This document shows positions 29,091 to 45,019 of a stretch of 64,000 nt of DNA, piece after piece. Position 1 is the first letter of the stretch, and the number at the start of each line of letters is the position of its first letter. Origin of the DNA: Nitrospirota bacterium (lineage in GTDB: Bacteria; Nitrospirota; Nitrospiria; 2-01-FULL-66-17). Position numbers and translations under genes: made by a program. The notes under the pieces were generated by a model. The model did not search any database and was not told the origin of the DNA. It saw only the letters and a list, made by a program, of their open reading frames with translations. The DNA lies in contig JBMOMC010000006.1 in assembly GCA_049325335.1 (NCBI GenBank), positions 35,673 to 99,672 of the forward strand, read 5' to 3'.

Positions 29091-29579
29091 GTTGTCGAGA
29101 ACAGACCCCGCTTACCAGAGTCCCACTTGCGCGCTACATCTGAGCAGCTCGCGTAGATCGTCGAGCAAGGACACGCCAGCATAGACTCTAGCCGAGCTGA
29201 CAGTCAAGAAATCGCCGAAGAACAGCGTTACGAGGGCTCTCCCCCGGTGTATGCTGCTTCCGGATTAGAACGCTCATGCGGAAATCCCGAAGTTCCCATC
29301 GACGCTCATGGGCTCCAGCGCGTGTCCGTCGGGCGCGCGTCACGCCAAATCCGGATTCACGCTGGCCGGTTTCCTGCGTTCGAGCCCGCGTCTCTCCCGG
29401 TATGATCACTGCGAGCGCCTAGCGCCTTCCGCGCTTCGGGCCTTTCGAGAAGCGGTCAGAGGCGGCCTTTTCGCCGCACGGCGTGTCCGGCACTGTCCTC
29501 ATCACGGCCGGAAGGCGTGAATTCTGGCCGCTCCGGGAGGCATGGTTCTGGCAGTTTCTCTCTGCGACCTGTTTGCGTC

Positions 29580-30086
29580 ATGGATGACGTGCCAACGCCG
29601 GGTGAGAAATACAAGGCCCTGAAGGAACGGCTCTGGAACCAACCGCGTCCTCGCCAGATTCTGGAGCGACTCGAGCAGCACCGCGCCAGCCCCCCGATGT
29701 TGGAAACCGTGGCGCAGACCTTTGTGAATGGGCGGCACGGGGAGGCGGAGATCAGATCGGCCATCTACAGCGAGCTGCTCCGCAATCGCGACCGGACCGC
29801 GGTTCTCAAACGAATCGGCGATCTCCGCCACTGCCTTATGAAGATTCAACAGGATCTGTCCCACGTCGCGCGCGAGTTGCATCAACTCAAGGTCTGGGAG
29901 GGACACCGCGTCTTGGGATACGAGTCCTGGGGCGACTGTCTCGAGAAGGAGTTGGAGTTGTCCGATCAGGTGGCGAGGATGCTGTTCTTGGCGGAGGAGC
30001 AGGGGGAGCGGGCCACGTTCGACGCGTTCGTGCGGACGCTCATCAAAGGCTACGCGGCGACCCGGCCGGCCGTGGCGGTGAAATGA
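29580..30086 (+). CDS. Hypothetical protein, 168 aa
   Basis: ORF with an ATG at 29580 (MDDVPTPGEKYKALKERL). Its stop overlaps the next start (ATGA at 30083-86), suggesting an operon. No domain was recognised. Confidence 0.4.
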   Translation: MDDVPTPGEKYKALKERLWNQPRPRQILERLEQHRASPPMLETVAQTFVNGRHGEAEIRSAIYSELLRNRDRTAVLKRIGDLRHCLMKIQQDLSHVARELHQLKVWEGHRVLGYESWGDCLEKELELSDQVARMLFLAEEQGERATFDAFVRTLIKGYAATRPAVAVK

Positions 30087-30523
30087 ACGAGGAACTGCCC
30101 GAGGCTTGGTGCTGGGAACGGTTACGGAGTCTTCGCTGGCCGGCCCGTGTGGTCTGCCCCCACTGTCGCCGACCCGCAGGCCGGCATCATCGAAGGCGGC
30201 ATGCGCTGTACTACCGGTGCGCGCGGTGCCAGCGAGTGTTCTCCGACCTCACCGGTACGCCATTCCAGGGCAGCCCGCTGCCGCTGGCGTGTTGGTTTCG
30301 AGCCATTGCGTGGCAAATGATGAGTGAGTCCGGCAGCGCCGCTGCGCTCGCTGAGGCGGTTGGTGTGGACCACCGAACCGCAAGGAAGATGCAGCATCGG
30401 CTTGCCATGCTTGACCGTGATCCGTTGTTGCGGGCCATCGGAACGAGCGTGCTCTGTCAGAGGCCGGAGTCACATGTGCACATCGGAGTGGGTTTTGACA
30501 CCGTGTCAAAACCCACTCCGTAA
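30083..30523 (+). CDS. IS1595-type transposase N-terminal zinc-ribbon domain protein, with no DDE catalytic domain
   Basis: LRWPARVVCPHCRR...YYRCARCQRVFSDLTGTPFQGSPLPLACWFRAIAW matches the Zn-ribbon/HTH N-terminus of IS1595/ISXO2-like transposases. At only 146 aa it lacks the catalytic part. Confidence 0.6.
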   Translation: MNEELPEAWCWERLRSLRWPARVVCPHCRRPAGRHHRRRHALYYRCARCQRVFSDLTGTPFQGSPLPLACWFRAIAWQMMSESGSAAALAEAVGVDHRTARKMQHRLAMLDRDPLLRAIGTSVLCQRPESHVHIGVGFDTVSKPTP

Positions 30524-30544
30524 TGCTTCGCGCAGGAGAGTGAG

Positions 30545-31936
30545 ATGAGCATCGAGCAACAGAGTGAGCATCGCGAGATGGACCGGCTCATCGAACAATA
30601 CGTCGCGGATCCGCAGAGCCTTTCGTTGGAGGAGCAGCGACGGATCTACGACCACTTTCTCAAACGCGTTGGGGCGGACGATACCGAATGCGAGCAATTG
30701 AAGCTCGCGCTGCAGGCGGTCGATCAGGCATTGGACAGGGCCAGGCAAGGGGATGCGGCCTATCGGGTCACGCCACGGGGGACGTACTGGCGTCGCGACG
30801 CGGAGATGAAACTGGTGCCGATCGACGCCCTGTTTCCTAGCGACGACAATCAGGACCTGTTTCGGGACATGGAGGGTGAGGACTTCGAGCAGCTCAAGGG
30901 CTCCATTCAAGAACTTGGCGTGATCGAGCCGTTGATCGTGGACGAAGATATGCGGCTCATCTGCGGGCACCAGCGACTGCGGGCGGCCAAGGCTGTGGGC
31001 CTGCCATCGGTCCCGGTGGTGATCCGGTCTGTGGGAGAAGCCGAGACCCGGGCCATGATCACGATCGAAGAGAACATCCGCCGGCGCCAACTCCAACCCT
31101 CCGAGATGGCTCGAGCGATCAAGAAATTGACGGAACTCAAGACCCGCGCCGGACAGGTGGCGGAAACCGTTGGGCTGTCCGACCGCCAGGTCCAGCGCTA
31201 TCGCAGTCTCTCGGACCTCATCCCCGAGCTGTCGGTCCTGCTGGACGGCGGCACGCTGACGCAGCACGTGGCGATCCAATTGGCCCAGTTGGATGAGACG
31301 GCTCAGCGCGAGTTGTACCACGCCATGAAGGACCGGATGGCCAGGACCTTGGAGGGGCAAAAGGCGGTCGAGTTCGAAACGATGCACGCCGGGCTTTTGA
31401 AGGAACTGGACGGGCTGTCCGCCGAGGTGAAGAGTATCACGCAGCGCGACGGCGAGCTGACCGCGCATCTGACCGAATTGCAGCAGCGCCTCGATCGGGC
31501 GGAGGGTCAGGTCGGGGGCGAGATCAAGGCGAAGAAGCTCTTGGAGGAAGAGCTGGAAAAAGTCCGTGCCGAGATGTACCGGAAGGTCCAGGAGAAGCAG
31601 GCGCTGATCGACAAGCTGACGAAGAACACGGAACCGACGGTCGTTCCGCCCGCTGATTACCAGGCCCTCAAGGCTGAGAACGTCAAACTCAAGGCTGCGC
31701 TGAAGGAACGCGGCGAGTCCGTCGCGAAAGCAACGCCACAGGCCGGCGCCGTCGTGGCCGAACTGGATGCCCTCATCGGCACCCGGTTATTGGCGATCGA
31801 TCCCGAGGCCCTCACTCGGAATATCTCACCCGCTGTAAAAGATCAGCTCCAATCCCTCCTGCGAAAACTGGAGGCCTGGATCGCAGGCGTCAAGCAGCGC
31901 CTCGGCGCTCCTCGAATCGCCAGCAAGAAGTCGTGA
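30545..31936 (+). CDS. ParB/Sulfiredoxin-domain protein with HTH and a long C-terminal coiled coil
   Basis: ParB N-domain LKGSIQELGVIEPLIVDEDMRLICGHQRLRAAKAVGLPSVPVVI, followed by the HTH VAETVGLSDRQVQRYRSL and about 180 aa of heptad-rich sequence. Confidence 0.8.
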   Translation: MSIEQQSEHREMDRLIEQYVADPQSLSLEEQRRIYDHFLKRVGADDTECEQLKLALQAVDQALDRARQGDAAYRVTPRGTYWRRDAEMKLVPIDALFPSDDNQDLFRDMEGEDFEQLKGSIQELGVIEPLIVDEDMRLICGHQRLRAAKAVGLPSVPVVIRSVGEAETRAMITIEENIRRRQLQPSEMARAIKKLTELKTRAGQVAETVGLSDRQVQRYRSLSDLIPELSVLLDGGTLTQHVAIQLAQLDETAQRELYHAMKDRMARTLEGQKAVEFETMHAGLLKELDGLSAEVKSITQRDGELTAHLTELQQRLDRAEGQVGGEIKAKKLLEEELEKVRAEMYRKVQEKQALIDKLTKNTEPTVVPPADYQALKAENVKLKAALKERGESVAKATPQAGAVVAELDALIGTRLLAIDPEALTRNISPAVKDQLQSLLRKLEAWIAGVKQRLGAPRIASKKS

Positions 31937-31943
31937 GGTCGTC

Positions 31944-32453
31944 GTGTCGCCGCTCGATCCCGACGACGAGCCGACCGACAAGGATTCAGCCCCGCAACTG
32001 TTCTCCGACGAAGAACGCGACCTCCTCGTGAAACGCCTGGCGCTCTGCGGCCTTCCCACGCGGGAAATCGTCCGCATCACGGCTGCGTCCGGCCGAACCG
32101 TGGCCCGTATCATCCAGCGGTGGGGGATCCGGCGGCCCAGACCGGGGTACCGGTCAGTCGCGAGAATGCGACGAGCGCAACGCCTCACCGAGATCCTCAC
32201 CGGTTATTACGCCCTGAACGAGGTCACGCTCGATTCGCTCGATCGCTTGGCCAGAGAGCACGGCCTCTCGGTCAAGGAGCTGTTCGATCTGATCCGCGAG
32301 AACGTGTCGCCATCCCGCTGGGCGATCCGCGCCTGCCTGGCCTGCGGGCAAGTGGCCCTGACGTCGTCGGCGGCTGATCGGTATTGCTTGGCGTGCAAGG
32401 GCACGGTGAAGAAAGCGCGGGGGAAAGTAGACGAGGCGGTTCTTTACGAGTAA
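31944..32453 (+). CDS. Small HTH protein with a C-terminal CxxC...CxxC zinc ribbon
   Basis: GTG start. It has a resolvase-like HTH (TREIVRITAASGRTVARII) and the cysteine motif CLACGQ...CLACKG. Confidence 0.45.
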   Translation: MSPLDPDDEPTDKDSAPQLFSDEERDLLVKRLALCGLPTREIVRITAASGRTVARIIQRWGIRRPRPGYRSVARMRRAQRLTEILTGYYALNEVTLDSLDRLAREHGLSVKELFDLIRENVSPSRWAIRACLACGQVALTSSAADRYCLACKGTVKKARGKVDEAVLYE

Positions 32454-32686
32454 TCGGCGTCGTGGTTTGCATCAACAAATTTCCGGTGCAATTGTCGTCT
32501 TGCATCACTGAGCAGGCACATACTGACGTGTAAATCTTAGGGAAACGCTGCCCAGTTTTTGGGCGATGTGCTCGGGCCACGATCATCAGGGCTCTCCACT
32601 CGTGTTCCCACAAGCTGTCCACACGATTTTTCACAGCATCTGTGGAGGAGATTCTTGCGATCAAAGGGCACGGACGGGTGGTTTCC

Positions 32687-32716
32687 TTGACCCGTGGAGC
32701 CGCGACGGGCTATGCT
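32687..32716 (+). promoter_or_regulatory. Candidate sigma-70 promoter for the SNF2 helicase gene
   Basis: TTGACC (32687-92), an 18-nt spacer, then TATGCT (32711-16). GAGGGG lies 6 nt before the putative TTG start at 32743. Confidence 0.35.
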
Positions 32717-32742
32717 GCGGTGCGGTTTTCGAGGGGCCTGCC

Positions 32743-35631
32743 TTGCCTGAACCCGGTTCCAGCGCCGTCGAGCGCGCATCGTTGTCCATCACGTCCTACC
32801 ACGCCAAGTTTCTCGCCCATGAGCTGACCAAACGCTGTGCCTCCGATACCATCGAGAAACTCGCCGGCGCGTTGGTGGACGCCCAGGTGGACCTCAATCC
32901 GCACCAGGTCGAAGCGGCCCTGTTCGCTTTCCGATCGCCGCTGTCCAAGGGCGCGCTGCTCGCCGACGAAGTCGGGTTGGGGAAGACGATCGAGGCCGGT
33001 CTGGTGCTCTCGCAGAAATGGGCGGAGCGAAAGCGGCGAGTCTTGGTGATCACGCCCTCCAATCTCCGCAAACAGTGGCATCAGGAGTTGACCGAGAAAT
33101 TCTTCCTCCCGTGTCATATTTTGGAAACCAAGTCGTACAAGGAAGCGATCAAACAGGGGCGGCCGCATCCGTTTCACGCCGACGCGATCATTATCTGCTC
33201 CTACCAATTCGCCCGCGGCAAGGCGGCTGACATCAGTTCGATCCCGTGGGACCTGGTTGTCATCGACGAGGCCCACCGACTGCGAAACGTCTACAAGCCG
33301 TCGAACATCATCGCGAATACGCTCAAAGAGGCGCTCAAACACGCTCCCAAGCTGCTGCTGACCGCCACGCCGCTCCAAAATTCCCTGCTGGAATTATTCG
33401 GCCTGGTGAGTTTCGTCGATGAACACGCGTTCGGGGATCTGAAGAGTTTTCGCGAACAATTTGCCTCGGTGAACGATCCCGCGGTCTTCGGCGCCCTCAG
33501 GGCGAGGCTCCGGCCGCTCTGCCATCGGACGTTGCGGCGCCAGGTTCTTCCGTACGTGCGGTATACGAAGCGGCTGCCCATCGTCCAACCCTTTACGCCG
33601 GAGGAGGGCGAGGATCGGCTCTATCATTTGGTCTCCGACTACCTCCGTCGCGACAATCTGCAAGCCCTACCGTCAAGCCAGCGCACGCTCATGACGCTGG
33701 TGTTGCGGAAGCTGCTGGCCTCATCAACGTTCGCGATCGCCGGGGCCCTTGAGACATTAAGCGGACGGCTTCAGGAGCGGTTGAAAGCGCAGGAGCCCGC
33801 GCAGCCCCTGGAAGACGAGTTGGACCAGGATTACGAAGCGCTCGACGAAACGGCCGAGGAGTGGTCCGAGAACGGAGGCCCTGAACCAATGTCAGCCGCC
33901 GATCGTGAAGCGATCGGGCGCGAGATCGCTGACTTGGACCGGTTCCGGGAACTGGCGGTCTCGATCACCCACAACGCCAAGGGCAAAGCCCTGCTCGTGG
34001 CGCTTGAGCGCGCCTTCACCGAGGCTGACCGACTGAGAGCGCCGCGCAAAGCGATCATCTTCACCGAGTCGCGCCGCACGCAGGACTACTTGCTCCGAGT
34101 CCTGGCGGACGGGCCGTATCGCGACAAGATCGTGCTCTTTAACGGCTCCAACACCGACGAAGGGTCTCGTCGCATCTATGCCGAGTGGGTCGAGCGGCAT
34201 ACCGGCACCGACCGCGTGACCGGCTCGCGCACCGCGGACATGCGCTCCGCGTTGGTCGACTATTTCAGAGAGCAAGGCCAGATCATGATTGCGACCGAGG
34301 CGGGGGCGGAGGGCATCAATCTCCAGTTCTGCGCGCTCGTGGTGAACTACGACCTGCCCTGGAACCCCCAGCGCATCGAACAGCGAATCGGCCGCTGCCA
34401 TCGCTACGGCCAACAACACGACGTCGTGGTAGTTAACTTCCTGAATCAGACGAACGAGGCCGATCAACGCGTGTTCAGAATTCTGTCCGAAAAGTTCCGG
34501 CTCTTCGATGGCGTATTCGGCGCGAGCGACGAAGTGCTCGGCGCCATCGAATCGGGCGTGGATTTCGAAAAGCGCATCGCGGACATCTACCAGCGCTGCC
34601 GGAAGCCGGAAGAGATCAACAATGCCTTCGACCAGCTTCAACTCGACCTGAGCACCCAGATCAACGACGCCATCACGAAAACGCGTCAACAACTGCTGGA
34701 GCACTTCGACGACGAAGTGCGGGAAAAACTCCGCGTGAGCGACGAGAGTTCGCGCCAGTACCTGAATTATTTTGAGCGGATGTTGATGCGTCTCACCCGG
34801 TACGAACTCACTGGTCACACTGAGTTCCTCAGCGATTCGGCATTCCGCCTGAACGCCTGTCCGTTCGAAGGCGACATCCCGCTCGGCCTCTATGAACTCC
34901 CGCGTCGGTCGGGTGAAGCCCATTTCTACCGCATGGGCCATCCACTGGCACAACGGATCCTTGACCAAGCCAAGAACCGCCCGCTGGCGCCCGCTCAAGT
35001 GGTCTTCGACCTGAGCCAATACGATGGGAAGGTCAGCGTCTTAGAACCGTTCCTCGGTCAGTCGGGCAGTCTCATGCTCGCTTTGCTCACGGTCGAATCC
35101 CTCGACCAGGCGGAAGATTATCTGCTCGTCGGCGCGGTGACTGATGACGGAAGAACGTTGGATGAGGACGCCGCACGCCGGTTGTTCGCCTTGCCGGGGC
35201 GCGTAGTCAAAGAGCTTGCTGGCGAGGGAGGCGACGCGGGATTGGAGGAGATCCTCCATCGGCGGCAAGAAACCATTCAGCGGACAATCGCGCAGCGCAA
35301 TGCGGCGTTTTTCGAGGTGGAGGCGGAAAAGTTAGACGGCTGGGCCGATGATCTCAAAGTGGGCCTTGAGCGGGAGATCAAGGAAATGGATCGCCAGATC
35401 AAGGACGCCCGGAGGGCTGCGGCCGCATCGCTGACCCTGGAGGAAAAGCTGGCGGGGCAAAAGGACGTCAAGGCTTTGGAAGGCCAGCGCAGCGCCAAGC
35501 GGCGGGCATTGTTCGATGCGCAGGATGCTATTGATCAGAGGCGCGAGCAGTTGATCGCAGAGATCGAGGGAAAGTTGCAACAGCGCGTGACACGGACAGG
35601 ACTCTTTTCCATTCAATGGGTCCTAACGTGA
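32743..35631 (+). CDS. SNF2-family helicase with a C-terminal coiled-coil region
   Basis: Motif I ADEVGLGKT, motif II VIDEAHRLRN, motif VI QRIGRCHRYGQ, and a C-terminal heptad-rich stretch of about 150 aa. The track ORF starts at 32566. I prefer the TTG at 32743, in frame and with an SD, because residues before it are Cys/Gly/His-rich and non-conserved-looking. The start is uncertain. Confidence 0.85.
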   Translation: MPEPGSSAVERASLSITSYHAKFLAHELTKRCASDTIEKLAGALVDAQVDLNPHQVEAALFAFRSPLSKGALLADEVGLGKTIEAGLVLSQKWAERKRRVLVITPSNLRKQWHQELTEKFFLPCHILETKSYKEAIKQGRPHPFHADAIIICSYQFARGKAADISSIPWDLVVIDEAHRLRNVYKPSNIIANTLKEALKHAPKLLLTATPLQNSLLELFGLVSFVDEHAFGDLKSFREQFASVNDPAVFGALRARLRPLCHRTLRRQVLPYVRYTKRLPIVQPFTPEEGEDRLYHLVSDYLRRDNLQALPSSQRTLMTLVLRKLLASSTFAIAGALETLSGRLQERLKAQEPAQPLEDELDQDYEALDETAEEWSENGGPEPMSAADREAIGREIADLDRFRELAVSITHNAKGKALLVALERAFTEADRLRAPRKAIIFTESRRTQDYLLRVLADGPYRDKIVLFNGSNTDEGSRRIYAEWVERHTGTDRVTGSRTADMRSALVDYFREQGQIMIATEAGAEGINLQFCALVVNYDLPWNPQRIEQRIGRCHRYGQQHDVVVVNFLNQTNEADQRVFRILSEKFRLFDGVFGASDEVLGAIESGVDFEKRIADIYQRCRKPEEINNAFDQLQLDLSTQINDAITKTRQQLLEHFDDEVREKLRVSDESSRQYLNYFERMLMRLTRYELTGHTEFLSDSAFRLNACPFEGDIPLGLYELPRRSGEAHFYRMGHPLAQRILDQAKNRPLAPAQVVFDLSQYDGKVSVLEPFLGQSGSLMLALLTVESLDQAEDYLLVGAVTDDGRTLDEDAARRLFALPGRVVKELAGEGGDAGLEEILHRRQETIQRTIAQRNAAFFEVEAEKLDGWADDLKVGLEREIKEMDRQIKDARRAAAASLTLEEKLAGQKDVKALEGQRSAKRRALFDAQDAIDQRREQLIAEIEGKLQQRVTRTGLFSIQWVLT

Positions 35632-35671
35632 TCATGATCTCTAAGTCCTTCAATCAGTCCGATTGATGCGA

Positions 35672-35700
35672 TTGAACGGTGCTATTGAAACCGGTATGCT
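35672..35700 (+). promoter_or_regulatory. Candidate sigma-70 promoter for the AAA-ATPase/subtilase pair
   Basis: TTGAAC (35672-77), a 17-nt spacer, then TATGCT (35695-700), within the 109-nt gap after the SNF2 stop. Confidence 0.45.
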
Positions 35701-35740
35701 AGGCCCGTTTGGGACTCTGTAGAAAGGGTGCTGAGCGGCT

Positions 35741-36751
35741 TTGGCCAAACCGCCCAAGGAGCGCATCAGTCCGCAGATGGCACGATCTGATCTTCTCATA
35801 TCGCTGGTCAAGACAGGGCGGGACAGTTCTAATCCGCGTTTCCGTCGCGCGGTCGAAGCCCTGATCGCAGAGGAGCGCGCTAAGAAGCACAATATGCTTG
35901 CAGACCAACTCGCCGCCGCTTACACTGACCAATCTACGAACGGTCCGCCACGGCCCCTAAGTGCGCCGTCGGGAACCGTAGCCGATTTGGTGTACGAGAT
36001 TGCTTCCGACCGTAGGCTCGACAGCCTCGTCTTGCCTCAGATAGTGGCCCAAGAGTGTCGGAGTCTGATCGAGGAGCATCGGCGTGCCGACCTTCTGCGT
36101 TCCTTTGGTCTTGCGCCGCGCCATCGTGTCCTTCTCGTCGGCCCACCCGGCAATGGAAAAACGTCTCTTGCAGAGTCACTGGCTCACGAGTTGATGGTCC
36201 CATTGCTGGCCATTCGATACGAAGGCCTTATCGGCAGCTACCTGGGCGAGACAGCGGCACGTCTGCGGAAAGTCTTTGATTATGCCCGACAGCGAGCGTG
36301 TTTGCTGTTTTTTGACGAATTCGAGACGCTGGGCAAAGAACGCGGTGATGAACACGAAACTGGAGAGATCAAGCGCGTGGTCAGCACGCTTCTACTGCAA
36401 ATTGATAGCCTTCCTCCGCATGTTGTGGTGGTTACCGCGACAAACCATCGCGAGTTGTTGGACCGTGCGGTCTGGCGTCGCTTTCAACTTCGTCTTGAGC
36501 TGCCTAGTCCGACGAAGAGACAGGTGACGCAATTCCTCGATCGTTTGTTCGCACAATTGGAGTTCGCGCGTACTCTGCCGGTAAGTACTTTCGCGGAGTC
36601 ATTCCGCAGCGCGAGCTATTCCGAAATCGAGGACTTTGTGCGTGATCTTGCTCGTCGCTATGTTCTTGCAATTCCGAATGGCGACGTACGAAAGATCGCA
36701 CGGGATCTGCTCGCCGCGTGGAAAGCTCGAGCGGGTTCCGAATCTCGATAA
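35741..36751 (+). CDS. AAA+ ATPase (classic-clade AAA), IetA-like
   Basis: Walker A GPPGNGKT, Walker B LLFFDEFE, and sensor-1 / Arg-finger region VVVTATNHRELLDRAVWRRF. It is paired with a downstream S8 peptidase as in the Iet (IetA/IetS) defence system. The start is TTG 35741 or ATG 35777. Confidence 0.75.
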   Translation: MAKPPKERISPQMARSDLLISLVKTGRDSSNPRFRRAVEALIAEERAKKHNMLADQLAAAYTDQSTNGPPRPLSAPSGTVADLVYEIASDRRLDSLVLPQIVAQECRSLIEEHRRADLLRSFGLAPRHRVLLVGPPGNGKTSLAESLAHELMVPLLAIRYEGLIGSYLGETAARLRKVFDYARQRACLLFFDEFETLGKERGDEHETGEIKRVVSTLLLQIDSLPPHVVVVTATNHRELLDRAVWRRFQLRLELPSPTKRQVTQFLDRLFAQLEFARTLPVSTFAESFRSASYSEIEDFVRDLARRYVLAIPNGDVRKIARDLLAAWKARAGSESR

Positions 36752-36766
36752 TCCAGGGGCACCCCA

Positions 36767-39382
36767 TTGCCCGACAAGCCGATTCTCATATTTCCAGCCG
36801 CGACTGTCGAAGCGCGACGACCACTTCCACAGGGTTTCACTCCACCTCGTACACGACCGACGCAAGCACAGCAACGTAGACGTCTGGCAGCTCGATTTCA
36901 GGCACTTTCACAGAGCTTTGGGGTCGTCCGTGCAGATACGACTGGCCTCGATCCCGAGCAGGTCGTTGTTTTCGAGGTCGCTGGCGCCATCGCTGACTTT
37001 CAGAATGTCGTTAGGCGACTCGGGGGAATGGAGTGGCTTGGTGATTTTGAAGTCGAGATCGCCGAGCCACCTCCAGCATTTTTCGAACAGGGCGTGTCCG
37101 TAACGCCGCTGGCGGGTCGGCTGTTCGTTGTCGTCAGCAACCAAGCAAAGCTCAACGAGATCGTCCGGCTCTGGCGGCTCTGGTGCCGATCAAGCGACGA
37201 AAAGCTCCCTCGTAACTTTGGGAAGTTAGCCGAGGTCTTTAAGCACCTGAACGACGTGCGTCCATGGGGCGTACAAGATCGCCTTCGAGAGCGCCGCGCT
37301 CTCGATTGGTGGAGGGACTGCCTTGCAGCGAATAAGGCGACTATTCGCTTTGAGGTCGAACTCTGGTGCCGTCAGTCGGCGGAGAAACAAGCCGAGGCTT
37401 ACCGACACCTTCAGGGTGTCGTTCAGGAGATTCATGGTCAGTGCGTCACGCAGGCTGCCATTTGGGAGATCGATTATCATGGTGTACTCGTCGATCTTCC
37501 AGCATCGGCGGTCCAGGCCACGATAGATGCACTCAACGCTCAGGGAGATACCAAGCTTCTGCGTCTCACCGACATCAAGTATTTCTGTCCGATGGGGCAA
37601 GTCGTCATAGCCCATCCGACAGAGTCGGCACCAGGCGACTTCCCCCAACAGCCGCGACCAGGCGGTGATCCGATTGTTGGCCTGTTAGATGGCCTTCCCC
37701 TCGAAAACCATGCAGCACTCCAGGATCGTCTCATTATCGATGACCCAGATGGCTTTTCTTCTCGGTACGGCGCAGGGGAGCAACGTCACGGCACGGCGAT
37801 GGCTTCTCTAATCGTGCACGGCGAACTGGATGGAAACGAGGATGCACTTCTCCGCCCCGTGTATACGCGACCAATCATGTATCCCGGCAGCCCCAATATT
37901 AACCACATCCGATGGGAGCAGTTACCCGAGGGCAACCTGCCAGTTGATCTCACTTTTCGCGCGGTACGACGGATGTTCGAGAGTGACGGGGTGACACCTG
38001 CAGTTGCGCCAACCGTCAAGGTCATCAACTTCAGTATTGGTGACGCAAATCAGCTCTTCGATCGCGAAATGAGTCCATGGGCTCGCTTGCTGGATTGGCT
38101 GGCGTGGAAATATAAGGTGGTGTTTGTCGTCAGCGCGGGCAACCACCACGGGAACGTTACATTGGAAACGCCCGCAGATCAGTTGATGACACTCGGCGAT
38201 GACACGCTGCGCGCCCAGACGCTGCGCGCGATGGCGCGGGATCAATTGCAGCGACGTCTGCTTGCTCCGTCGGAGTCCGTCAATGCGGTTACCGTGGGAG
38301 CCGTACATGCGGATCTTGGGCCGAATAGCCCGCCCCCGAGCCTTGTGGATCCTCTTCGGAATGCCCGCTATTGCAGCCCGATTTCCTCTGTCGCCGGTGG
38401 GTTCCGACGATCCGTCAAGCCGGATATCTTGGTTGCTGGAGGCCGTCAACATTATCGGATACAGATGACGACGCCGAGTGCGAATCCGGCCGTGCTTGAG
38501 GTGCCGGAAAATCACAGCCAGCTTGGCCAGCGCGTGGCCGCTCCGGGTGGCATAGCGATTCCCCCAAATCACACGACACGTGTATGCGGAACCAGCAACG
38601 CTGCGGCTTTGACCACGCGTCGAGGTGCCCAATTGTACGATCAGATTCACGCTCTGCGCACAGAGCCGGGCGGCGAAGTACTGACGGACGACCTCGTTTC
38701 GGTACTAATCAAAGCGCTGCTTGTTCATGGAACATCATGGAACGACATGGAAGGCGTGATTGGTTCTGCTCTGGATCAAGGCGACAACGGAAATACCCGA
38801 TGGAATCGGGTGAAGCGCGCCTGTACCCAGTTTCTTGGATATGGCGAGGCGGATTGGGTTCGAGGCAGCGTGTGTACCGATCAGCGAGTCATCATGCTTG
38901 GAGTCGGTCGTCTTGAGGCGGACCGAGCACACGTTTACGAGGTGCCTCTTCCGCCAGCGCTGAGTGCCCAGCGTGTCGGCAGGCGCCTGACGGTCACCCT
39001 GGCTTGGCTGACGCCAATCAATACGCGTCATCGTTCATACCGCGTGGCCTCGCTATGGTTTGACCCGCCATGCGACGCATTACAGTTGGAGAGACGGGAT
39101 GGTCACCACGACACAGTAAACCGGGGAACCGTTCAACATGAGATCCTTGAAGGCGACCGAGCGGTGCCGATCACTGTCGGCGATACCGCTACGGTGCAGG
39201 TCAACTGCCGATCTGATGCTGGAACAAAGCTGCCTTCTCCGATTCCATACGCGCTCGCAGTAACCCTCGAGGTCTCACGTCCCCTCGCGGTGAGTGTGTA
39301 CGACGAGGTGAGGGTCGCTCTGGATCGAATCCGCACAGTATCACGTGTCCGTCCTCCCGTTCGCACAGGTGGTCGTGGGTAG
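36767..39382 (+). CDS. S8-family subtilase (871 aa), IetS-like
   Basis: Catalytic Asp region IVGLLDGLP, His HGTAMASLIVHG, oxyanion Asn VVSAGN, and Ser GTSNAAALTT. There is no signal peptide, so it is predicted cytoplasmic. It begins 15 nt after the ATPase stop. Confidence 0.8.
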   Translation: MPDKPILIFPAATVEARRPLPQGFTPPRTRPTQAQQRRRLAARFQALSQSFGVVRADTTGLDPEQVVVFEVAGAIADFQNVVRRLGGMEWLGDFEVEIAEPPPAFFEQGVSVTPLAGRLFVVVSNQAKLNEIVRLWRLWCRSSDEKLPRNFGKLAEVFKHLNDVRPWGVQDRLRERRALDWWRDCLAANKATIRFEVELWCRQSAEKQAEAYRHLQGVVQEIHGQCVTQAAIWEIDYHGVLVDLPASAVQATIDALNAQGDTKLLRLTDIKYFCPMGQVVIAHPTESAPGDFPQQPRPGGDPIVGLLDGLPLENHAALQDRLIIDDPDGFSSRYGAGEQRHGTAMASLIVHGELDGNEDALLRPVYTRPIMYPGSPNINHIRWEQLPEGNLPVDLTFRAVRRMFESDGVTPAVAPTVKVINFSIGDANQLFDREMSPWARLLDWLAWKYKVVFVVSAGNHHGNVTLETPADQLMTLGDDTLRAQTLRAMARDQLQRRLLAPSESVNAVTVGAVHADLGPNSPPPSLVDPLRNARYCSPISSVAGGFRRSVKPDILVAGGRQHYRIQMTTPSANPAVLEVPENHSQLGQRVAAPGGIAIPPNHTTRVCGTSNAAALTTRRGAQLYDQIHALRTEPGGEVLTDDLVSVLIKALLVHGTSWNDMEGVIGSALDQGDNGNTRWNRVKRACTQFLGYGEADWVRGSVCTDQRVIMLGVGRLEADRAHVYEVPLPPALSAQRVGRRLTVTLAWLTPINTRHRSYRVASLWFDPPCDALQLERRDGHHDTVNRGTVQHEILEGDRAVPITVGDTATVQVNCRSDAGTKLPSPIPYALAVTLEVSRPLAVSVYDEVRVALDRIRTVSRVRPPVRTGGRG

Positions 39383-39445
39383 CAATGATTCGTCGCGTTG
39401 GTATTTGAGACGCTTGTTAATACTGCACCAGTGACCTGCTAAGAC

Positions 39446-41080
39446 ATGGATAGACGCCAAAAACTCGAACTCACTTGGATCGGGAAGGAGAACCGGCCAA
39501 AACTGGAGCCGCGGATTCTGCTGGCGGACCCGAAGACGTCTTACCACGCACCACACCGAGTCACCGACCGCGACTTGTTCGACAACCGCCTCATTTTCGG
39601 CGACAACCTGCTCGCCCTCAAAGCCCTCGAACAGGAATTTTCTGGCAAGATCAAGTGCATTTTTATTGACCCACCGTACAATACCGGTGCAGCGTTCGAG
39701 CACTATGATGACGGGGTGGAACATTCGACCTGGCTGTCGCTGATGCGCGATCGGCTAGAAATCATCTGGCGGCTGTTGTCCGACGACGGTTCGCTGTGGA
39801 TCACCATCGATGACAACGAGGCGCATTACCTGAAGGTGTTGTGCGATGAGGTGTTTGGGCGGGCCAACTTCGTTGCCTCGATGGTTTGGGAAAAAGACAG
39901 CGGGCGCAAGAACGATACAGACGTTTCTTCGTCGCACGACTATGTACTACTTTTCGCTCGCAATAGAGAGATATGGCGTAAGACGCGGAATCTGTTGGAG
40001 CGCAGCGACGAGCAGCTTGACCGGTATCAGAATCCCGATAACGACCCTCGGGGGGCGTGGAGACAAGGAGCTGACGGTACGGCAAAGAGTGGGAGCGAAA
40101 GTCTGCGCTATCCCATTACATTACCTTCGGGTAGGGTAGTAACACCTCCCTCTGGTAATTTTTGGAGGTTCAGTCGAGAAACCTTTGAAACGGCGGTTGC
40201 GGAGAATCGCGTCTACTTTGGGAAGGACGGCAATCGCCTGCCGATCATTAAGAAGTACCTCTCCGAGATTCAAACCGGTATTGTGCCCAAAACATGGTGG
40301 CCTGCCGACGAGGTCGGATCGAACCAAGAAGCCAGGCGAGATCATTTGAGGAAGCTGTTACCCGACATCGAACCCTTTGCCACGCCCAAGCCGGAGCGGC
40401 TGCTCAAACGAATCGTTGAGATTGCCACCAATCCCGGTGACTTGGTCCTTGACTCATTCGCCGGTTCCGGCACCACCGGGGCCGTCGCCCACAAGATGGG
40501 TCGTCGCTGGATCATGGTGGAGCTTGGCGAGCACTGCCACACGCATATCATTCCGCGTCTGAAGAAGGTCATCGACGGAACCGACAAGGGGGGAATCACC
40601 GAGGCCGTGGGCTGGAAGGGCGGCGGTGGGTTTCGTTATTACCGGCTGGCGCCGTCGCTGCTGGAGCAGGACAAGTGGGGGAATTGGGTTATCAATAAGG
40701 CGTACAACTCGGCGATGCTGGCCGAGGCTGTCTGCAAGCTGGAGGGATTCACGTACGCGCCCAGCGACGCGGCCTACTGGCAGCACGGTCACTCCACCGA
40801 GTGCGATTTCATCTACGTCACCACGCAGAATCTGAACCACGACCAGCTCCAGCAGCTCAGCGACGAGGTCGGCCCCAATCGCACGCTGCTCGTGATGTGC
40901 ACCGCCTTCCGCGCCAAGCCGGATCGGTTTCCCAACCTGACGATCAAGAAGATCCCCAAGACCGTGCTCTCCCGGTGTGAGTGGGGCAAGGACGATTACA
41001 GCCTGCGCGTGGAGAACCTGCCGAAGGCGCCGCCCCCGATGGGGCAGCAGGAGTTGGAATTGGACCGAGATAAGAGATAG
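39446..41080 (+). CDS. mod: Type III restriction-modification methyltransferase (Mod; beta-class N6/N4 amino-MTase)
   Basis: Motif IV IFIDPPYNTG precedes motif I DSFAGSGTTG, which is the beta permutation. The size and variable central domain are typical of Mod subunits. Confidence 0.9.
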   Translation: MDRRQKLELTWIGKENRPKLEPRILLADPKTSYHAPHRVTDRDLFDNRLIFGDNLLALKALEQEFSGKIKCIFIDPPYNTGAAFEHYDDGVEHSTWLSLMRDRLEIIWRLLSDDGSLWITIDDNEAHYLKVLCDEVFGRANFVASMVWEKDSGRKNDTDVSSSHDYVLLFARNREIWRKTRNLLERSDEQLDRYQNPDNDPRGAWRQGADGTAKSGSESLRYPITLPSGRVVTPPSGNFWRFSRETFETAVAENRVYFGKDGNRLPIIKKYLSEIQTGIVPKTWWPADEVGSNQEARRDHLRKLLPDIEPFATPKPERLLKRIVEIATNPGDLVLDSFAGSGTTGAVAHKMGRRWIMVELGEHCHTHIIPRLKKVIDGTDKGGITEAVGWKGGGGFRYYRLAPSLLEQDKWGNWVINKAYNSAMLAEAVCKLEGFTYAPSDAAYWQHGHSTECDFIYVTTQNLNHDQLQQLSDEVGPNRTLLVMCTAFRAKPDRFPNLTIKKIPKTVLSRCEWGKDDYSLRVENLPKAPPPMGQQELELDRDKR

Positions 41081-41087
41081 CGCGCGA

Positions 41088-41180
41088 ATGAAGCGACCTA
41101 TGCGGGCGACGTTGTATCACCGGATTCGGGAGATTCTGGAATCGGCCCGGACCCGCGTGGCGCGGACGGTCAACACCACA
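41088..41180 (+). pseudogene. Possible remnant of a DUF1016/YhcG-type (PDDEXK nuclease) gene N-terminus
   Basis: MKRPMRATLYHRIREILESARTRVARTVNTT resembles the conserved N-terminal helix of DUF1016 proteins. Similarity is then lost and the frame runs into the res gene. The call rests on recall of the family consensus only. Confidence 0.3.
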
Positions 41181-41227
41181 TCCTGGGACACGCCGACATC
41201 ACAACAATCGGAGATCTGGTACGCACC

Positions 41228-44020
41228 GTGTACCGAATCCTGGAAGCCGGGCCGGCTTCACCCGAACTTCGTTTGGACCCATTTGGGCTGGCATCCGGCG
41301 CGCGCACCGCGAAAGCGCACGCCGTGAACCGCCACGTCAACGCCATTGCCGGTCGCTTGAGCCTGCGGCCCCCGCAGCGCCGTTCGCTGGAGATCCTCGA
41401 CCGGATCACCGAGATCGCGCCGCCCAAGAAGGCCGTGGACCTGTCGTCGGCACTCGCCGCGATCCGCAGCGAGTTTCCGACCGTGACGGATTTCGAGCGG
41501 GAATTCCCGTCGCTCTGCTTCGCCCTGGCCACCGGCGTGGGCAAGACTCGGCTCATGGGCGCCTTCATCAGCTATTTGCACTTGGCGCATGGCATCAACC
41601 ACTTCTTCGTGCTGGCGCCAAATCTCACGATCTACAACAAGTTGATCACCGACTTTACGCCGAACACGCCCAAGTACGTGTTCAAAGGCATCGCCGAGTT
41701 CGCCACCGAACCGCCCCAGATCATCACCGGAGACAACTACGAGACCGGAATCGGCGTCCGTGAAGGACGACTGTTTGAGAGCGGCATCCACGTGAACATC
41801 TTCAACATCTCCAAGATCAATTCCGAGGTCCGCGGCGGCAAGTCCCCGCGCATCAAGCGCCTCTCGGAGTACATCGGCGAGAGCTACTTCGATTATCTCG
41901 CGGGCCTGGACGACCTGGTGCTGATCATGGACGAATCGCATCGCTACCGGGCATCGGCCGGGGTGCGGGCGATCAACGAGCTGAAGCCGGTGTTGGGTCT
42001 GGAACTGACGGCCACGCCGGTCGTGGAAACGGCCAAGGCCGCAGTGCGCTTCAAGAACGTGATCTATGACTACCCACTGGCGAACGCCATGGCCGACGGT
42101 TTCGTGAAAGAGCCGGCCGTGGTCACGCAGAAGAACTTCGACCCCAGACAGTTCACCCCACCGCAGATCGAGGAGATCAAGCTCCAGGACGGCGTGCGGC
42201 TGCACGAGAACACCAAGGTCGAACTGGAGACGTACGCCCGACAGACCGGGCAGCGGATCGTCAAGCCCTTCATGCTGATTATCGCGCGCGACACCACGCA
42301 CGCCGGGCAACTGATGCAACTGATACAGTCCGCGAAATTCTTCGATGGGCGCTACAAGGACAAGGTCATCCAGGTGGACTCCAGCAGGACCGGCGCGGAA
42401 GAAGACGAGATGGTGCAGCGCCTGCTCGCGGTGGAGAGCCCTGATGAACCGACCGAGATCGTGATCCACGTCAACATGCTCAAGGAAGGGTGGGATGTCA
42501 CGAACCTTTATACGATCGTCCCACTCCGGGCGGCCAATGCGCGCGTCCTGATCGAGCAGTCGATTGGTCGCGGATTGCGCCTGCCCTACGGCAAGCGAAC
42601 CGGGGTGAGCGCGGTGGACCGGCTGAGCATCGTGGCGCACGATCGCTTTCAGGAGATCATTGACGAGGCGAATCGGCCCGATTCAGTGATCCGTCTGGCG
42701 CAGGTGGTTCTGGATCCAGCGACGGATCTCCAGAAGACCCGAACCGTGATTGCGCAATCGAACGTGGCCGCGCAGATCGGCATGGCTCCGGCAACCCCGG
42801 GGGGTACGCTTCCCGCACCGGAAACAGTGGTCACTCCGCTGTTTACAACCGAGGCGGAGAAGAAGATCGCGCAGGCCGCGTATGAGGTGATCCGGCGATA
42901 CGAACACCTTCCCGCGTCGACCGACCTGCTCAAACCGGACATCCAGGCAAGTCTCGTGAAAGAAGTCGCGGAGTACTTGACTCCCACCCAGCAGGCGCTG
43001 CCGGGCGTCACCGAGCCGGCCGATATTCCGGCCGTGGTCGCCAAGACCTTGCAGTTTGTCGTCCAGCAAACGATCGACATTCCTCGCATCCTCGTCGTCC
43101 CCAAGGGCGACGTGACCACGGGGTTTCACCCGTTTACGCTGGGTTGCTCCGGCATCCGCTATCAGCCGGTTGAACGGGACTTGCTGATCCAGCATCTGCG
43201 AACGCACGCGCAGGAGACGTTAAGTTTCGGCGCCGGTCACCAACAGGAGCTGCGGCTCGAAGATTACCTGGTGCGAGGGCTCATCGACTTCGACGATGTC
43301 TCATACGACGAACACGCCGACCTGCTCTACGACCTCGCCGGGCAACTGGTGGCACACCTGCGGTCGTATCTCTCGGAGGAGGACGCGCGAAACGTGTTGA
43401 TCTACCATCAGCGGCAACTCGCCGCGTTCATCCACGCACAAATGCAGGCGCATCAGTGGGAGAAGGCGGCGGGATACGACGTCGTGGTGAGCAAAGGCTT
43501 TACCGAACTCAAACCCAGTGCCCATACGGTCCGGGACGGCGACCCGATTCATGATTTCCGCCAGACCGTGGAGGACAAGAGCCGGATCGCGCAATTGCTA
43601 TTCGGCGGGTTCCAGCGCTGTCTGTATCGCGTCCAGAAGTTCCAATCCGACACCGAGCGCAAGCTCGCCGTGATCTTGGACCGTGAGGCGCTGAAGTGGT
43701 TCAGGCCTGTTCAAGGGCAGTTCCAGATCATCTATAAACGGGGGGCGGACCAGCCCGAATACGTGCCGGATTTTGTGGCCGAAACGGCCACTGGAATCTA
43801 TATGCTGGAGCCCAAAGCGCGGAGCGAAATGACGGACGCCGATGTCCTGGCAAAAAGGGACGCCGCGGTCCAATGGTGCGCCCACGCATCGAATCACGCC
43901 CTCCAGAATGGCGGGAAGCCCTGGAAGTACGCCCTCATTCCGCACGATGCGATTGCGGAGAACATGACGCTTGCGGGGTTGGTGAGCCAGTTCGCGATTA
44001 TGCCTCAGGGGGCGATATAG
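41228..44020 (+). CDS. res: Type III restriction enzyme Res subunit (SF2 helicase plus C-terminal PD-(D/E)xK endonuclease)
   Basis: Motif I LATGVGKT, motif II LIMDESHRY, motif VI EQSIGRGLRLPYG, and a C-terminal nuclease motif YVPDFVAE...YMLEPKA. The start is uncertain: GTG 41228 as in the track, or GTG 41324 just before the conserved VNRHVNAIAGRLSLRPPQRRSLEIL. Confidence 0.85.
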   Translation: MYRILEAGPASPELRLDPFGLASGARTAKAHAVNRHVNAIAGRLSLRPPQRRSLEILDRITEIAPPKKAVDLSSALAAIRSEFPTVTDFEREFPSLCFALATGVGKTRLMGAFISYLHLAHGINHFFVLAPNLTIYNKLITDFTPNTPKYVFKGIAEFATEPPQIITGDNYETGIGVREGRLFESGIHVNIFNISKINSEVRGGKSPRIKRLSEYIGESYFDYLAGLDDLVLIMDESHRYRASAGVRAINELKPVLGLELTATPVVETAKAAVRFKNVIYDYPLANAMADGFVKEPAVVTQKNFDPRQFTPPQIEEIKLQDGVRLHENTKVELETYARQTGQRIVKPFMLIIARDTTHAGQLMQLIQSAKFFDGRYKDKVIQVDSSRTGAEEDEMVQRLLAVESPDEPTEIVIHVNMLKEGWDVTNLYTIVPLRAANARVLIEQSIGRGLRLPYGKRTGVSAVDRLSIVAHDRFQEIIDEANRPDSVIRLAQVVLDPATDLQKTRTVIAQSNVAAQIGMAPATPGGTLPAPETVVTPLFTTEAEKKIAQAAYEVIRRYEHLPASTDLLKPDIQASLVKEVAEYLTPTQQALPGVTEPADIPAVVAKTLQFVVQQTIDIPRILVVPKGDVTTGFHPFTLGCSGIRYQPVERDLLIQHLRTHAQETLSFGAGHQQELRLEDYLVRGLIDFDDVSYDEHADLLYDLAGQLVAHLRSYLSEEDARNVLIYHQRQLAAFIHAQMQAHQWEKAAGYDVVVSKGFTELKPSAHTVRDGDPIHDFRQTVEDKSRIAQLLFGGFQRCLYRVQKFQSDTERKLAVILDREALKWFRPVQGQFQIIYKRGADQPEYVPDFVAETATGIYMLEPKARSEMTDADVLAKRDAAVQWCAHASNHALQNGGKPWKYALIPHDAIAENMTLAGLVSQFAIMPQGAI

Positions 44021-44055: not shown

Positions 44056-44646
44056 TTAGCGGGGCCCCCGACGAAGGCTTATCCGCCGCCGTAATTGAAG
44101 TGCAACACCACTTAAATTCCGACGCGATACGAGCATTGGCAGAGAGACGCGATACTGCTCGCACGCCGCGTCATCGGGAATCTGATGTCTAGCGATATAG
44201 AGCAACGCTTCTCTGGGAAGTAGAAGGCATCCTGAGAACCACGCTGCCTCATCTTCCTGTTTCTGGTCGTAGCTCCGCATCACCCAGGCTCCATCTTGCG
44301 AGATGACCAGCCGGCTTGCCTCATGGCCTATGAGAATATGTGCCAACTCGTGCATTTGATCGCTTGATTGTCGCCCGAAAGAATGTTTGGGATTGTAGAC
44401 CACAATGTGTCGTCCAGCACTTTCAACCGTTACTGCTGACCAACCATCTGGATCTGCATTGAGAAGCTGGCGCTTGTGGGACGGTTCGAGCCCCTGGACA
44501 TCATGTGGAGTAATCAGCTCAACTTTGAGGAATCGTGCCAGGTCCGGAGCAAACAATGGACCATGGGCCTGAACACCGAGTTCTCGCCGAACACCTACCG
44601 AGGTGCGCTCAGCCCAGATTTTGAATCCCCGGTCAAATGTCGCCAT
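44056..44646 (-). CDS. ImmA/IrrE-family zinc metallopeptidase (DUF955)
   Basis: HEXXH motif MHELAHILIGHE. It follows and overlaps the XRE gene by 14 nt if the start is MATFDRG (44646). Confidence 0.8.
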   Translation of the reverse strand: MATFDRGFKIWAERTSVGVRRELGVQAHGPLFAPDLARFLKVELITPHDVQGLEPSHKRQLLNADPDGWSAVTVESAGRHIVVYNPKHSFGRQSSDQMHELAHILIGHEASRLVISQDGAWVMRSYDQKQEDEAAWFSGCLLLPREALLYIARHQIPDDAACEQYRVSLPMLVSRRNLSGVALQLRRRISLRRGPR

Positions 44647-45019
44647 CTCGCAAATCTTGATCGGGTTGCGGCTGTGTCTCGGCAACCAGCGAAATCATCG
44701 AAACGAGGGCCTGCAGAGTCTCCTGCTTCGGCGCCCGGTCTGAACGAAGGTGTGCCGATACGTGGATTTTGGCCGGTCGACGTGCCTGCTCATCATGATG
44801 TTTGGCCTGTTCGACAGTAAATCCCATTAGTTCATTGGGATCAACTTGGAGCCACCTGCAGACCTTGGTGAAGGTGGCAATATCGGGCGTTCGGCCATTT
44901 TCAATCCGCATGAGCGTCGCCGGACTGATCCCAATCTCGCCTGCGGTCTCGCGCAATCGTCGACTTCCCCGTTTTGCCTTGACGAAAGCCCCAAGGCCTT
45001 CCAACGTTCGTCTCGCCAT
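44633..45019 (-). CDS. XRE-family helix-turn-helix transcriptional regulator
   Basis: HTH_3 pattern LRETAGEIGISPATLMRIENGRTPDIATFTKVCRWLQVDPNELMG. Confidence 0.85.
   Translation of the reverse strand: MARRTLEGLGAFVKAKRGSRRLRETAGEIGISPATLMRIENGRTPDIATFTKVCRWLQVDPNELMGFTVEQAKHHDEQARRPAKIHVSAHLRSDRAPKQETLQALVSMISLVAETQPQPDQDLRDGDI

Follow-up and report, generated by a model that had tools for sequence, protein, structure and literature searches.

A locus of five co-oriented genes was analyzed in a stretch of 64,000 nucleotides (nt) from a Nitrospirota bacterium (GenBank assembly GCA_049325335.1, contig JBMOMC010000006.1, positions 35,673 to 99,672 of the forward strand), hereafter called the window. 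In order, the genes encode a Swi2/Snf2 ATPase (SNF2), the AAA+ ATPase IetA and the S8 subtilase IetS of an IetAS defense module, and the methyltransferase (Mod) and restriction (Res) proteins of a Type III-like restriction-modification (R-M) system. The five open reading frames (ORFs) lie on the plus strand at 32566-35631, 35741-36751, 36767-39382, 39446-41080, and 41228-44020 in the ORF listing of the window, with gaps of 109, 15, 63, and 147 nt, in exact agreement with an initial annotation made from the sequence alone. The gene identities given there also hold, as Pfam searches and a PADLOC run, which it had proposed, agree for all five genes. The catalytic motifs that it listed for SNF2, IetA (Walker A and B), IetS (Asp/His/Asn/Ser), Mod, and Res were all found intact in the ORF translations. 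Residue numbers of motifs refer to these longest ORFs.

Comparison with homologues indicates shorter coding regions for three of the genes. SNF2 most likely starts at TTG 32782 (32782-35631, 949 amino acids (aa)), since its homologues are about 949 aa long and open with MxLTxYHAK, and the window reads MSITSYHAK. IetA most likely starts at ATG 35777 (35777-36751, 324 aa) and not at TTG 35741, since the PADLOC profile alignment opens at ORF residue 13 and an ATG is located there. Res starts at GTG 41324 (41324-44020, 898 aa), and its opening MNRHVNAIAG is conserved across 36 loci; the gap between Mod and Res is therefore 243 nt, the value that the initial annotation had offered as an alternative. 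IetS (36767-39382) is 871 aa long with a TTG start, and Mod occupies 39446-41080. With the corrected starts, the four gaps are 145, 15, 63, and 243 nt.

The SNF2 protein contains the Pfam domains SNF2-rel_dom and Helicase_C, with the motifs GLGKT137, DEAH234, and QRIGRCHR606, and its best PADLOC model is DrmD (PDLC02619, 680 bits). The best sequence match in PDB is RapA. RapA is also the best fold match (E-value 2.5e-22 over about 1000 columns) of a full-length model of low confidence (predicted local distance difference test (pLDDT) 62), and chromatin remodelers score about 1e-12 in the same search. The C-terminal 290 residues are predicted, in a model with pLDDT 85, to form an α+β domain followed by a long antiparallel coiled coil; this model had no fold match in PDB at E ≤ 0.001. 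With RapA as the best fit of the full-length model and no PDB match for the C-terminal one, a nuclease fold in SNF2 is not supported. The SNF2 family is very abundant, with 72-82% identity across Nitrospirota, Methylomirabilota, Acidobacteriota, Verrucomicrobiota, Planctomycetota, and KSB1. The SNF2 orthologue from one Nitrospira assembly (locus L001, GCA_030692565.1, 3308-6439) is 1043 aa long and has a precomputed GIY-YIG match in Pfam.

IetA contains the Pfam domain AAA and matches the PADLOC model IetA (PDLC04232) with 465 bits and an E-value of 4.8e-140; Walker A is GPPGNGKT134 and Walker B is LLFFDE188. IetS contains Peptidase_S8 and matches the PADLOC model IetS (PDLC04233) with 962 bits and an E-value of 5.5e-290. 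Its catalytic residues D308, H341, N459, and S610 are invariant in an alignment of 18 sequences; homologues are about 872 aa long and their alignments span 100% of the query. The resemblance to the IetAS pair of Gao et al. (2020), an adjacent AAA+ ATPase and S8 protease, which the initial annotation had pointed out, is borne out by the strong PADLOC matches, the 15-nt gap, and the intact catalytic residues. Unlike free-standing IetAS, the copy in the window has genes of another system on either side and, as homology with E. coli suggests, may depend on the neighboring SNF2.

Mod contains the Pfam domain N6_N4_Mtase (PF01555) and matches the PADLOC model MTase_III (PDLC03636) with 729 bits. DPPY75 precedes FAGSG338, the order of beta-class N6/N4 DNA methyltransferases, and matches in PDB include Mod 6k0w (E-value 1e-53) and the Mod subunit of EcoP15I (3e-39). 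Res contains the Pfam domain ResIII (PF04851), matches REase_III (PDLC03648) with 746 bits, and combines the helicase-like motifs GVGKT103, DESH235, and QSIGRG444 with a C-terminal VPDF...EPK. Its best sequence match in PDB is the Res subunit of EcoP15I, a weak one with an E-value of 2.9e-6. The proposed Type III-like identity of the pair is thus supported by a beta-class Mod followed, 243 nt downstream on the same strand, by a superfamily 2 (SF2) ATPase with a PD-(D/E)xK nuclease domain.

Classical Type III R-M systems consist of two genes and do not contain SNF2; they cleave two inversely oriented unmethylated sites after ATP-dependent sliding. The window resembles such systems, of which EcoP15I is an example, in the DPPY motif placed before FxGxG in Mod, the SF2 motifs and C-terminal PD-ExK of Res, the position of mod upstream of res on the same strand, and the best or near-best PDB matches to EcoP15I subunits. 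It differs in that SNF2 is conserved as a third gene in the clade of the window, which also has two cargo slots. The similarity of Res to the EcoP15I subunit is also weak, and cleavage in the same manner is a prediction from the protein families.

The linkage of SNF2 with Mod and Res was analyzed in 80 metagenome loci anchored on SNF2 (loci are designated L001 and so on). Mod lies downstream on the same strand in 44 of the 80, and nearly all of the other 36 end too soon. Among loci with at least 6 kb of downstream sequence, 34 of 36 have Mod after SNF2; among those with at least 8 kb, 29 of 30 do. The two exceptions (L152 and L114) contain long co-oriented arrays of defense genes and are probably cut off before Mod. 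The Mod proteins of the SNF2-anchored loci are 55-82% identical. In viral-contig loci anchored on Res, SNF2 was present in all 12 cases in which Res is at least 40% identical and the upstream sequence is long enough, and seven loci with Res 37-38% identical have Mod and lack SNF2; the association is thus limited to a single clade. The same succession of SNF2, variable genes, a methyltransferase, and a DEAD/DEAH helicase corresponding to Res occurs on annotated plasmids of Salmonella, Deinococcus, Aeromonas, and Sphingopyxis. Compact forms, in which the three genes follow each other without cargo, were found in L131 (with a gap of 40 base pairs (bp)), L175, L177, L183, and E. coli NCTC86. In NCTC86 (L204, NZ_LR217818.1, 13984-23401), the operon encodes an SNF2 of 963 aa, a methyltransferase of 1040 aa, and a DEAD/DEAH helicase of 1126 aa; the Mod- and Res-like proteins are much larger and cargo is absent. 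This strain represents the commonest SNF2 variant of E. coli, to which most of 225 partial matches of roughly 70% identity belong.

The three genes also diverge together. Among 40 non-redundant loci, the Mantel correlation is 0.90 between SNF2 and Res, 0.72 between SNF2 and Mod, and 0.76 between Mod and Res (p = 0.0005 for each). The outer 2-kb flanks are unrelated between loci, with similarity in only 28 of 1378 upstream and 3 of 153 downstream pairs, and no flank synteny was seen between the window and the Nitrospira or Rhodanobacteraceae loci. Since the unit is conserved and its outer flanks are unrelated, the transferable unit extends from the start of SNF2 to the stop of Res. These comparisons indicate that SNF2, Mod, and Res form a single frame of three genes, conserved and diverging in step, that is inherited and moved as one across phyla. 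Members of the frame clade were found from Nitrospirota, Acidobacteriota, Deinococcota, Alphaproteobacteria, Gammaproteobacteria, and plasmids.

Between SNF2 and Mod lies a first cargo slot, whose length varies between 40 bp and 9.5 kb (median 3.2 kb) and is 3.8 kb in the window. Its content is highly variable, amounting to 63 protein clusters in 50 loci. Annotated cargo includes DUF2130 proteins, AbiU/AIPR, Lamassu-like LmuB-like SMC ATPases, HerA, Ppl-like ATPases, an M78 peptidase with DUF4411, HEC-01/AbiL-like ATPases, OLD, and AbiEi/Eii. The slot of L146 contains IetAS of a second subfamily (PDLC02198, 1035 bits). The most frequent gene encodes a DUF2130 protein (425-565 aa, 70-100% mutual identity), found in 11 loci (L085, L086, L101, L105, L108, L121, L123, L128, L138, L148, and L167). 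It is usually positioned right after SNF2 or early in the slot and is followed by a second variable gene, and it may be a semi-conserved accessory of the frame.

A second slot lies between Mod and Res. The two genes abut in 16 of 37 loci and are separated by 0.4-2.2 kb in the other 21, where small toxin-antitoxin-like or YhcG genes are found. In the window, the plus-strand segment 41118-41323 is a remnant of a YhcG/DUF1016 PDDEXK-nuclease gene with an internal deletion. It shows two collinear matches in the same frame to residues 14-35 and 195-219 of the intact YhcG protein from the second slot of L156, which contains the Pfam domains YhcG_C and DUF1016_N. In blastn, it is also 75-81% identical over about 60 nt to the second slots of L091, L092, L094, L126, and L127. 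The two collinear in-frame fragments identify the spacer between Mod and Res as decayed cargo. In L001, the space from SNF2 to IetA includes Bro-N and Fic-like genes, and DUF4258/DUF2283 and NTP_transf_2 genes separate Mod from Res, so that neither slot is empty in the closest relatives of the window.

Nucleotide conservation collapses exactly at the stop codon of SNF2 and resumes about 5 nt before the ATG of Mod. Conserved att-like or repeat sequences were looked for at the cargo borders and none were found. With no conserved site next to the cargo, the simplest explanation is homologous recombination inside the highly conserved genes on either side, and cargo is probably exchanged in this way. 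The E. coli frame and a plasmid-borne frame from Aeromonas are 72% identical in SNF2 and 70% in Res, and the former contains IetAS whereas the latter contains an AAA ATPase with DUF4276; cargo has therefore been swapped between close relatives. Likewise, the SNF2 of the window is 79% identical to that of L083, which has AbiE-type cargo, and 72-75% identical to those of L001 and L003, which have IetAS.

The distribution of IetAS was screened with IetS as the anchor in one genome per species, giving 80 loci from many phyla. IetA is immediately upstream of IetS in 77 of the 80, and the remaining three have no sequence upstream. About 75 of the 80 copies are free-standing, and SNF2 adjoins IetAS in only two, L003 and L074. 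The former, from Nitrospira, is the only locus of this set with homologues of SNF2, Mod, and Res together; in the latter, from Rhodanobacteraceae, SNF2 is directly upstream of IetA and the contig ends beyond it. Two further Nitrospira-type loci, L001 and L002, were found by look-up; both encode Mod and Res, and L001 also encodes SNF2. Three free-standing neighborhoods place IetAS among housekeeping genes or on mobile elements, without an R-M frame. Because it is mostly free-standing in such settings, IetAS is normally, judging from its neighborhoods, an autonomous two-gene module. The gene-neighborhood analysis proposed in the initial annotation thus gave a divided answer: SNF2, Mod, and Res co-occur, but IetAS mostly occurs by itself.

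Frame-embedded and free-standing copies of IetA and IetS are equal in length, and the frame-embedded IetS proteins are polyphyletic. The IetS of the window groups with those of L001 and L003, L146 and E. coli fall in another subfamily, and the IetS of L074 branches outside a group in which ten free-standing copies are included. This pattern indicates that IetAS entered frames several times, in at least three lineages and from two subfamilies. The close IetS relatives of the window (74-78% identity) are all within five-gene loci wherever flanks are available, and the five-gene order recurs in Nitrospira and metagenome loci (L001, L003, L207, L208, and L209).

The same order was found in E. coli with an enterobacterial SNF2 gene as a probe. 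In strains NCTC9082 and AR_0149, genes for SNF2 (949 aa), an AAA ATPase (326 aa), an S8 protease (795 aa), a methyltransferase (542 aa), and a DEAD/DEAH helicase (956 aa) follow each other with gaps of 25, 9, 9, and 2 nt. Of 5426 complete E. coli genomes, 74 contain this 10.8-kb stretch, with at least 80% of the query covered in each and 93-100% among the 40 matches listed; carriers include O104:H4 2011C-3493, 55989, E24377A, and 042. In this collection, the first three genes never occur without Mod and Res (74/74). A second allele, about 85% identical, was found in eight genomes (H100-H104: 600029, RM9513, STEC1587, and others); it aligns in two pieces over 93-94% of the query, and the part outside these pieces may have diverged or been exchanged and could, for example, be the target-recognition region of Mod. 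The five-gene arrangement occurs far beyond chance, as the same order is found in Nitrospira metagenome-assembled genomes (MAGs), metagenomes, and 74 E. coli genomes. Both the linkage of SNF2 to Mod/Res and the recurrence of the five genes as a co-oriented unit, each raised in the initial annotation, are borne out.

Part of this layout has been reported. Liu et al. (2026, Nucleic Acids Research, PMC13069673) validated ietHAS (Liu-DS4), consisting of ietAS and a DrmD-like SNF2 helicase; the mutations K65A and D165A in ietH and the loss of protease activity each abolish defense against T7, and an ietH mutant is cytotoxic. It is described there as a three-gene system and reported only from Pseudomonadota, and a methyltransferase, Mod, and Res go unmentioned. 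Wu et al. (bioRxiv 10.1101/2022.08.21.504612) reported that RM III and ietAS co-localize non-randomly in E. coli. In the E. coli SNF2, the Walker A lysine is at position 65 and the aspartate of DEAH at 165, and the protein is matched to ietH because these are the positions mutated by Liu et al. From gene order and residue numbering, ietHAS and the co-localization of RM III with ietAS both represent the same five-gene layout. The initial annotation had known of no described system with these genes; this stands for the frame with cargo slots, since the literature searched contained neither a description of an SNF2-Mod-Res frame with such slots nor one of ietH belonging to it, but it fails for ietHAS and for the RM III-ietAS co-localization, which are published.

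The window shares with ietHAS the gene order of a DrmD-like SNF2 directly upstream of ietA and ietS on the same strand and, with the native E. coli locus, the continuation into Mod and Res. Identity between the window and E. coli is 44% for SNF2 (the ietH homologue), 41% for IetA, 23% for IetS, 53% for Mod, and 46% for Res. The IetS of the window is of the PDLC04233 type, whereas L146, which among the metagenome relatives comes closest to the E. coli IetS, has the PDLC02198 type. In contrast to the published account, in which SNF2 is an accessory of IetAS, SNF2 here tracks Mod and Res and not IetAS. Unlike ietHAS as reported from Pseudomonadota only, the locus of the window has its closest relatives in Nitrospira MAGs. 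By these comparisons, it represents a remote version of the layout partly described from E. coli, with IetAS of another subfamily and relatives that belong to another phylum.

Other defense systems with similar components were compared. The SNF2 resembles DISARM class 1 in having DrmD as the best PADLOC match (profile positions 25-657 of 872) and in lying near an adenine-type methyltransferase, but the C-terminal part of the DrmD model is unmatched and the methyltransferase is Type III Mod-like. DrmA, DrmB (DUF1998), and DrmC domains were absent from the scanned ORFs, which comprise most of those of at least 140 aa between 21.9 and 50.6 kb. DISARM class 1 is ruled out by the absence of these genes within 10 kb, which the initial annotation had noted for the window, and the presence of Mod and Res at their place in the related loci examined. 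MADS includes the methyltransferase mad2, whose recognition site is bipartite, and mandatory MAD6-8 and has no SNF2 (Maestri et al., preprint). No mads hidden Markov models were among the PADLOC matches for Res, IetA, or IetS, nor among the best 25 for SNF2 and Mod; the only mad8-like match is a TraG/HerA-like ATPase on the opposite strand (47216-48790, 63 bits). A MAD1-like helix-turn-helix (HTH) gene ahead of SNF2 is confined to 5 of 102 loci, and the window lacks it. MADS is therefore ruled out: MAD6-8 are absent, MADS lacks SNF2, and the MAD1-like gene is rare. The Prokaryotic Genome Annotation Pipeline labels a 66-aa HTH protein overlapping the start of SNF2 as MAD1 in E. coli CFSAN064036 (L203, 13814-14014) and in a Salmonella IncFIB plasmid (L196, 5577-5777); this label ("mads1") on an HTH gene of the frame could be misleading. 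BREX-related (BR) systems are characterized by a DUF499 ATPase, and Hma by HmaB, HmaC, and an HmaA with a NOV_C nuclease. Both are likewise ruled out, as DUF499 and the NOV_C domain of Hma had no matches in the scanned ORFs of the window; the PADLOC score of SNF2 is 165 bits for HmaA against 680 bits for DrmD. The frame, MADS, Hma, and BR systems are all methylation-linked multigene defense loci, and Hma and BR systems also use Swi2/Snf2 helicases and allow the insertion of other defense genes.

Abi or HEPN genes within R-M operons have long been known. In the type Ic hsd locus EcoprrI, the embedded effector PrrC is held in check by the R-M proteins (PMC3710099). The window resembles this locus in the position of an abortive or toxic effector gene between R-M genes. 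It differs in that the frame is Type III-like with an SNF2 partner and the effector is a protease-ATPase pair; masking of the effector by the R-M proteins would be a conjecture here.

Taken together, the locus is probably a three-gene frame with two cargo slots, of which the first contains IetAS and the second a decayed YhcG/DUF1016 gene, and in which SNF2 also serves IetAS. From knowledge of the families, Mod would methylate host sites, and a complex of Res and Mod would act like a Type III enzyme, cutting invader DNA that is unmethylated. Given the homology to the E. coli five-gene locus, the SNF2 ATPase would cooperate with the module in the first slot, being needed for IetAS-dependent phage defense and helping to restrain the toxic IetS protease. 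The result would be a two-armed defense with one shared motor, combining restriction with a protease-based, probably abortive, arm. A functional coupling of SNF2 with the cargo is plausible by analogy, because the E. coli SNF2 carries K65 and D165, which are essential in ietHAS. The initial annotation had left a choice between a stack of three systems and a single multi-component system; neither fits, and a conserved frame with replaceable cargo takes their place.

Several points weigh against this reading. Co-inheritance of the frame alone is no proof of joint working, the Mantel correlations in part reflect clade structure, and a role of SNF2 in restriction or methylation would be a supposition. 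The coupling of SNF2 with IetAS is extrapolated from an E. coli homologue only 44% (SNF2), 41% (IetA), and 23% (IetS) identical, and the match between Liu-DS4 and the E. coli locus relies on gene order, on residue numbering, and on a prevalence of 1.4% of genomes against the "more than 1.5%" of Liu et al. Free-standing IetAS is reported to work without SNF2 (Gao et al. 2020, as cited in later papers). With cargo so diverse, any coupling must be generic or repeatedly evolved. The gaps of the window are looser than those of E. coli, and consensus scans of 32.0-44.6 kb gave promoter and terminator counts at chance level (4 against 3.9 and 12 against 11.0 in shuffled sequences), so that a single transcript is an unproven supposition.

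The alternative that survives best, though unlikely on balance, is that SNF2, Mod, and Res are a restriction system whose first slot is a permissive hotspot, with IetAS inserted there as an autonomous passenger and nothing passing between the two; the dependence on ietH in E. coli would then be particular to that lineage or to the experiments. It would account for the free-standing state of IetAS in about 75 of the 80 genome loci, for the 63 alternative clusters in the slot, and for close frames with different cargo (E. coli and Aeromonas, the window and L083), and the equal lengths of embedded and free-standing IetA and IetS also favor it. However, defense against T7 depends both on the ATPase motifs of SNF2 and on protease activity, and mutation of ietH leads to cytotoxicity (PMC13069673); moreover, frames captured IetAS in at least three lineages from two subfamilies, and the five genes are never separated in the 74 E. 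coli genomes.

An obligate system of five components, the second option of the initial annotation, in which Mod and Res read the methylation status and thereby license the protease arm and all five genes are needed, is very improbable. A coupling of a protease arm to methylation-based discrimination, as suggested there, would be a conjecture. The E. coli genes are co-oriented, tightly packed with gaps of 2-25 nt, and always together, five-gene loci are inherited as a unit in the lineage of the window, and PrrC-EcoprrI is a precedent for an embedded effector restrained by an R-M system (PMC3710099). Against these stand the published ietHAS, which is a three-gene system with a methyltransferase never mentioned (PMC13069673), the commonness of bare frames and of frames with unrelated cargo, and the mostly free-standing IetAS. 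That an orphan SNF2 defense helicase, IetAS, and a Type III R-M system were stacked by chance can practically be dismissed: the locus does lie within an island of atypical G+C content with mobile-element genes, and defense systems are known to cluster, but co-divergence between SNF2 and Res (0.90) is at least as tight as that between Mod and Res (0.76), Mod accompanies SNF2 in 34 of 36 loci, SNF2 accompanies Res in 12 of 12, and the unit is conserved while its outer flanks are unrelated.

The preferred reading, a frame with replaceable cargo whose SNF2 also serves IetAS, can be extended. The frame might be a general docking platform, in which the RapA-like SNF2 motor, tied to a Type III-like R-M system, licenses or restrains any toxic effector in the first slot (IetAS, AbiU, Lamassu-like, OLD, HerA, AbiE, and others), and in which the second arm is released once restriction fails or is blocked, for instance by anti-restriction proteins. 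This extension is speculative and is offered as a tentative idea that may well not hold.

The genes around the locus in the window are of mixed character. A hybrid GAF-HisKA-HATPase-REC sensor kinase (1102 aa) and a sigma-54-dependent response regulator (473 aa) at 21945-26661 on the plus strand appear to be the last core-genome genes ahead of the island. The minus-strand segment 26760-29090 has a low G+C content (0.50-0.53 against about 0.63 in the flanks) and two co-oriented ORFs, one of 406 aa without a Pfam or PADLOC match and one of 353 aa with an HNH_5 endonuclease domain; this may be a two-gene module of its own, acquired at the left border of the island. Upstream of SNF2, at 29517-32453 on the plus strand, lie a 189-aa ORF without a match, a 146-aa ORF with an IS1595-type zinc ribbon, a 463-aa protein with ParB_N and HTH_ParB, and a 169-aa ORF with a weak HTH_23 match. 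As tblastn found no relatives of the ParB and 169-aa HTH proteins in the IetS-anchored loci, these genes are probably island or mobile-element genes outside the frame.

Right after Res, at 44056-45019 on the minus strand, an M78/IrrE-like peptidase (209 aa; CapP- and RmrA-like PADLOC matches) and a 128-aa ORF with a weak HTH match lie within a second stretch of low G+C content at 44-47 kb. The pair looks like an ImmA/IrrE-type regulator pair or a small defense module. Further downstream, at 47216-50565 on the minus strand, the TraG/VirD4/HerA-like ATPase (524 aa; TrwB_AAD_bind and TraG-D_C) adjoins a 508-aa HD-domain protein, which together could be a conjugation remnant or another ATPase-nuclease defense pair.

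In evolutionary terms, ietH is reinterpreted here as a member of a Type III-like R-M frame, and the published ietHAS experiments may have studied part of a larger unit. If the frame were a general docking platform, ietH would be the shared controller of a modular sensor-effector immune locus and not a helicase specific to IetAS. The comparisons also point to a widespread clade of Type III R-M systems with a conserved SNF2 partner. The slots could be used to ask whether R-M systems guard embedded effectors, as in the PrrC paradigm. Together, the two slots form a compact natural catalogue of defense cargo, in which many clusters have no annotation, and which could be mined for new systems.

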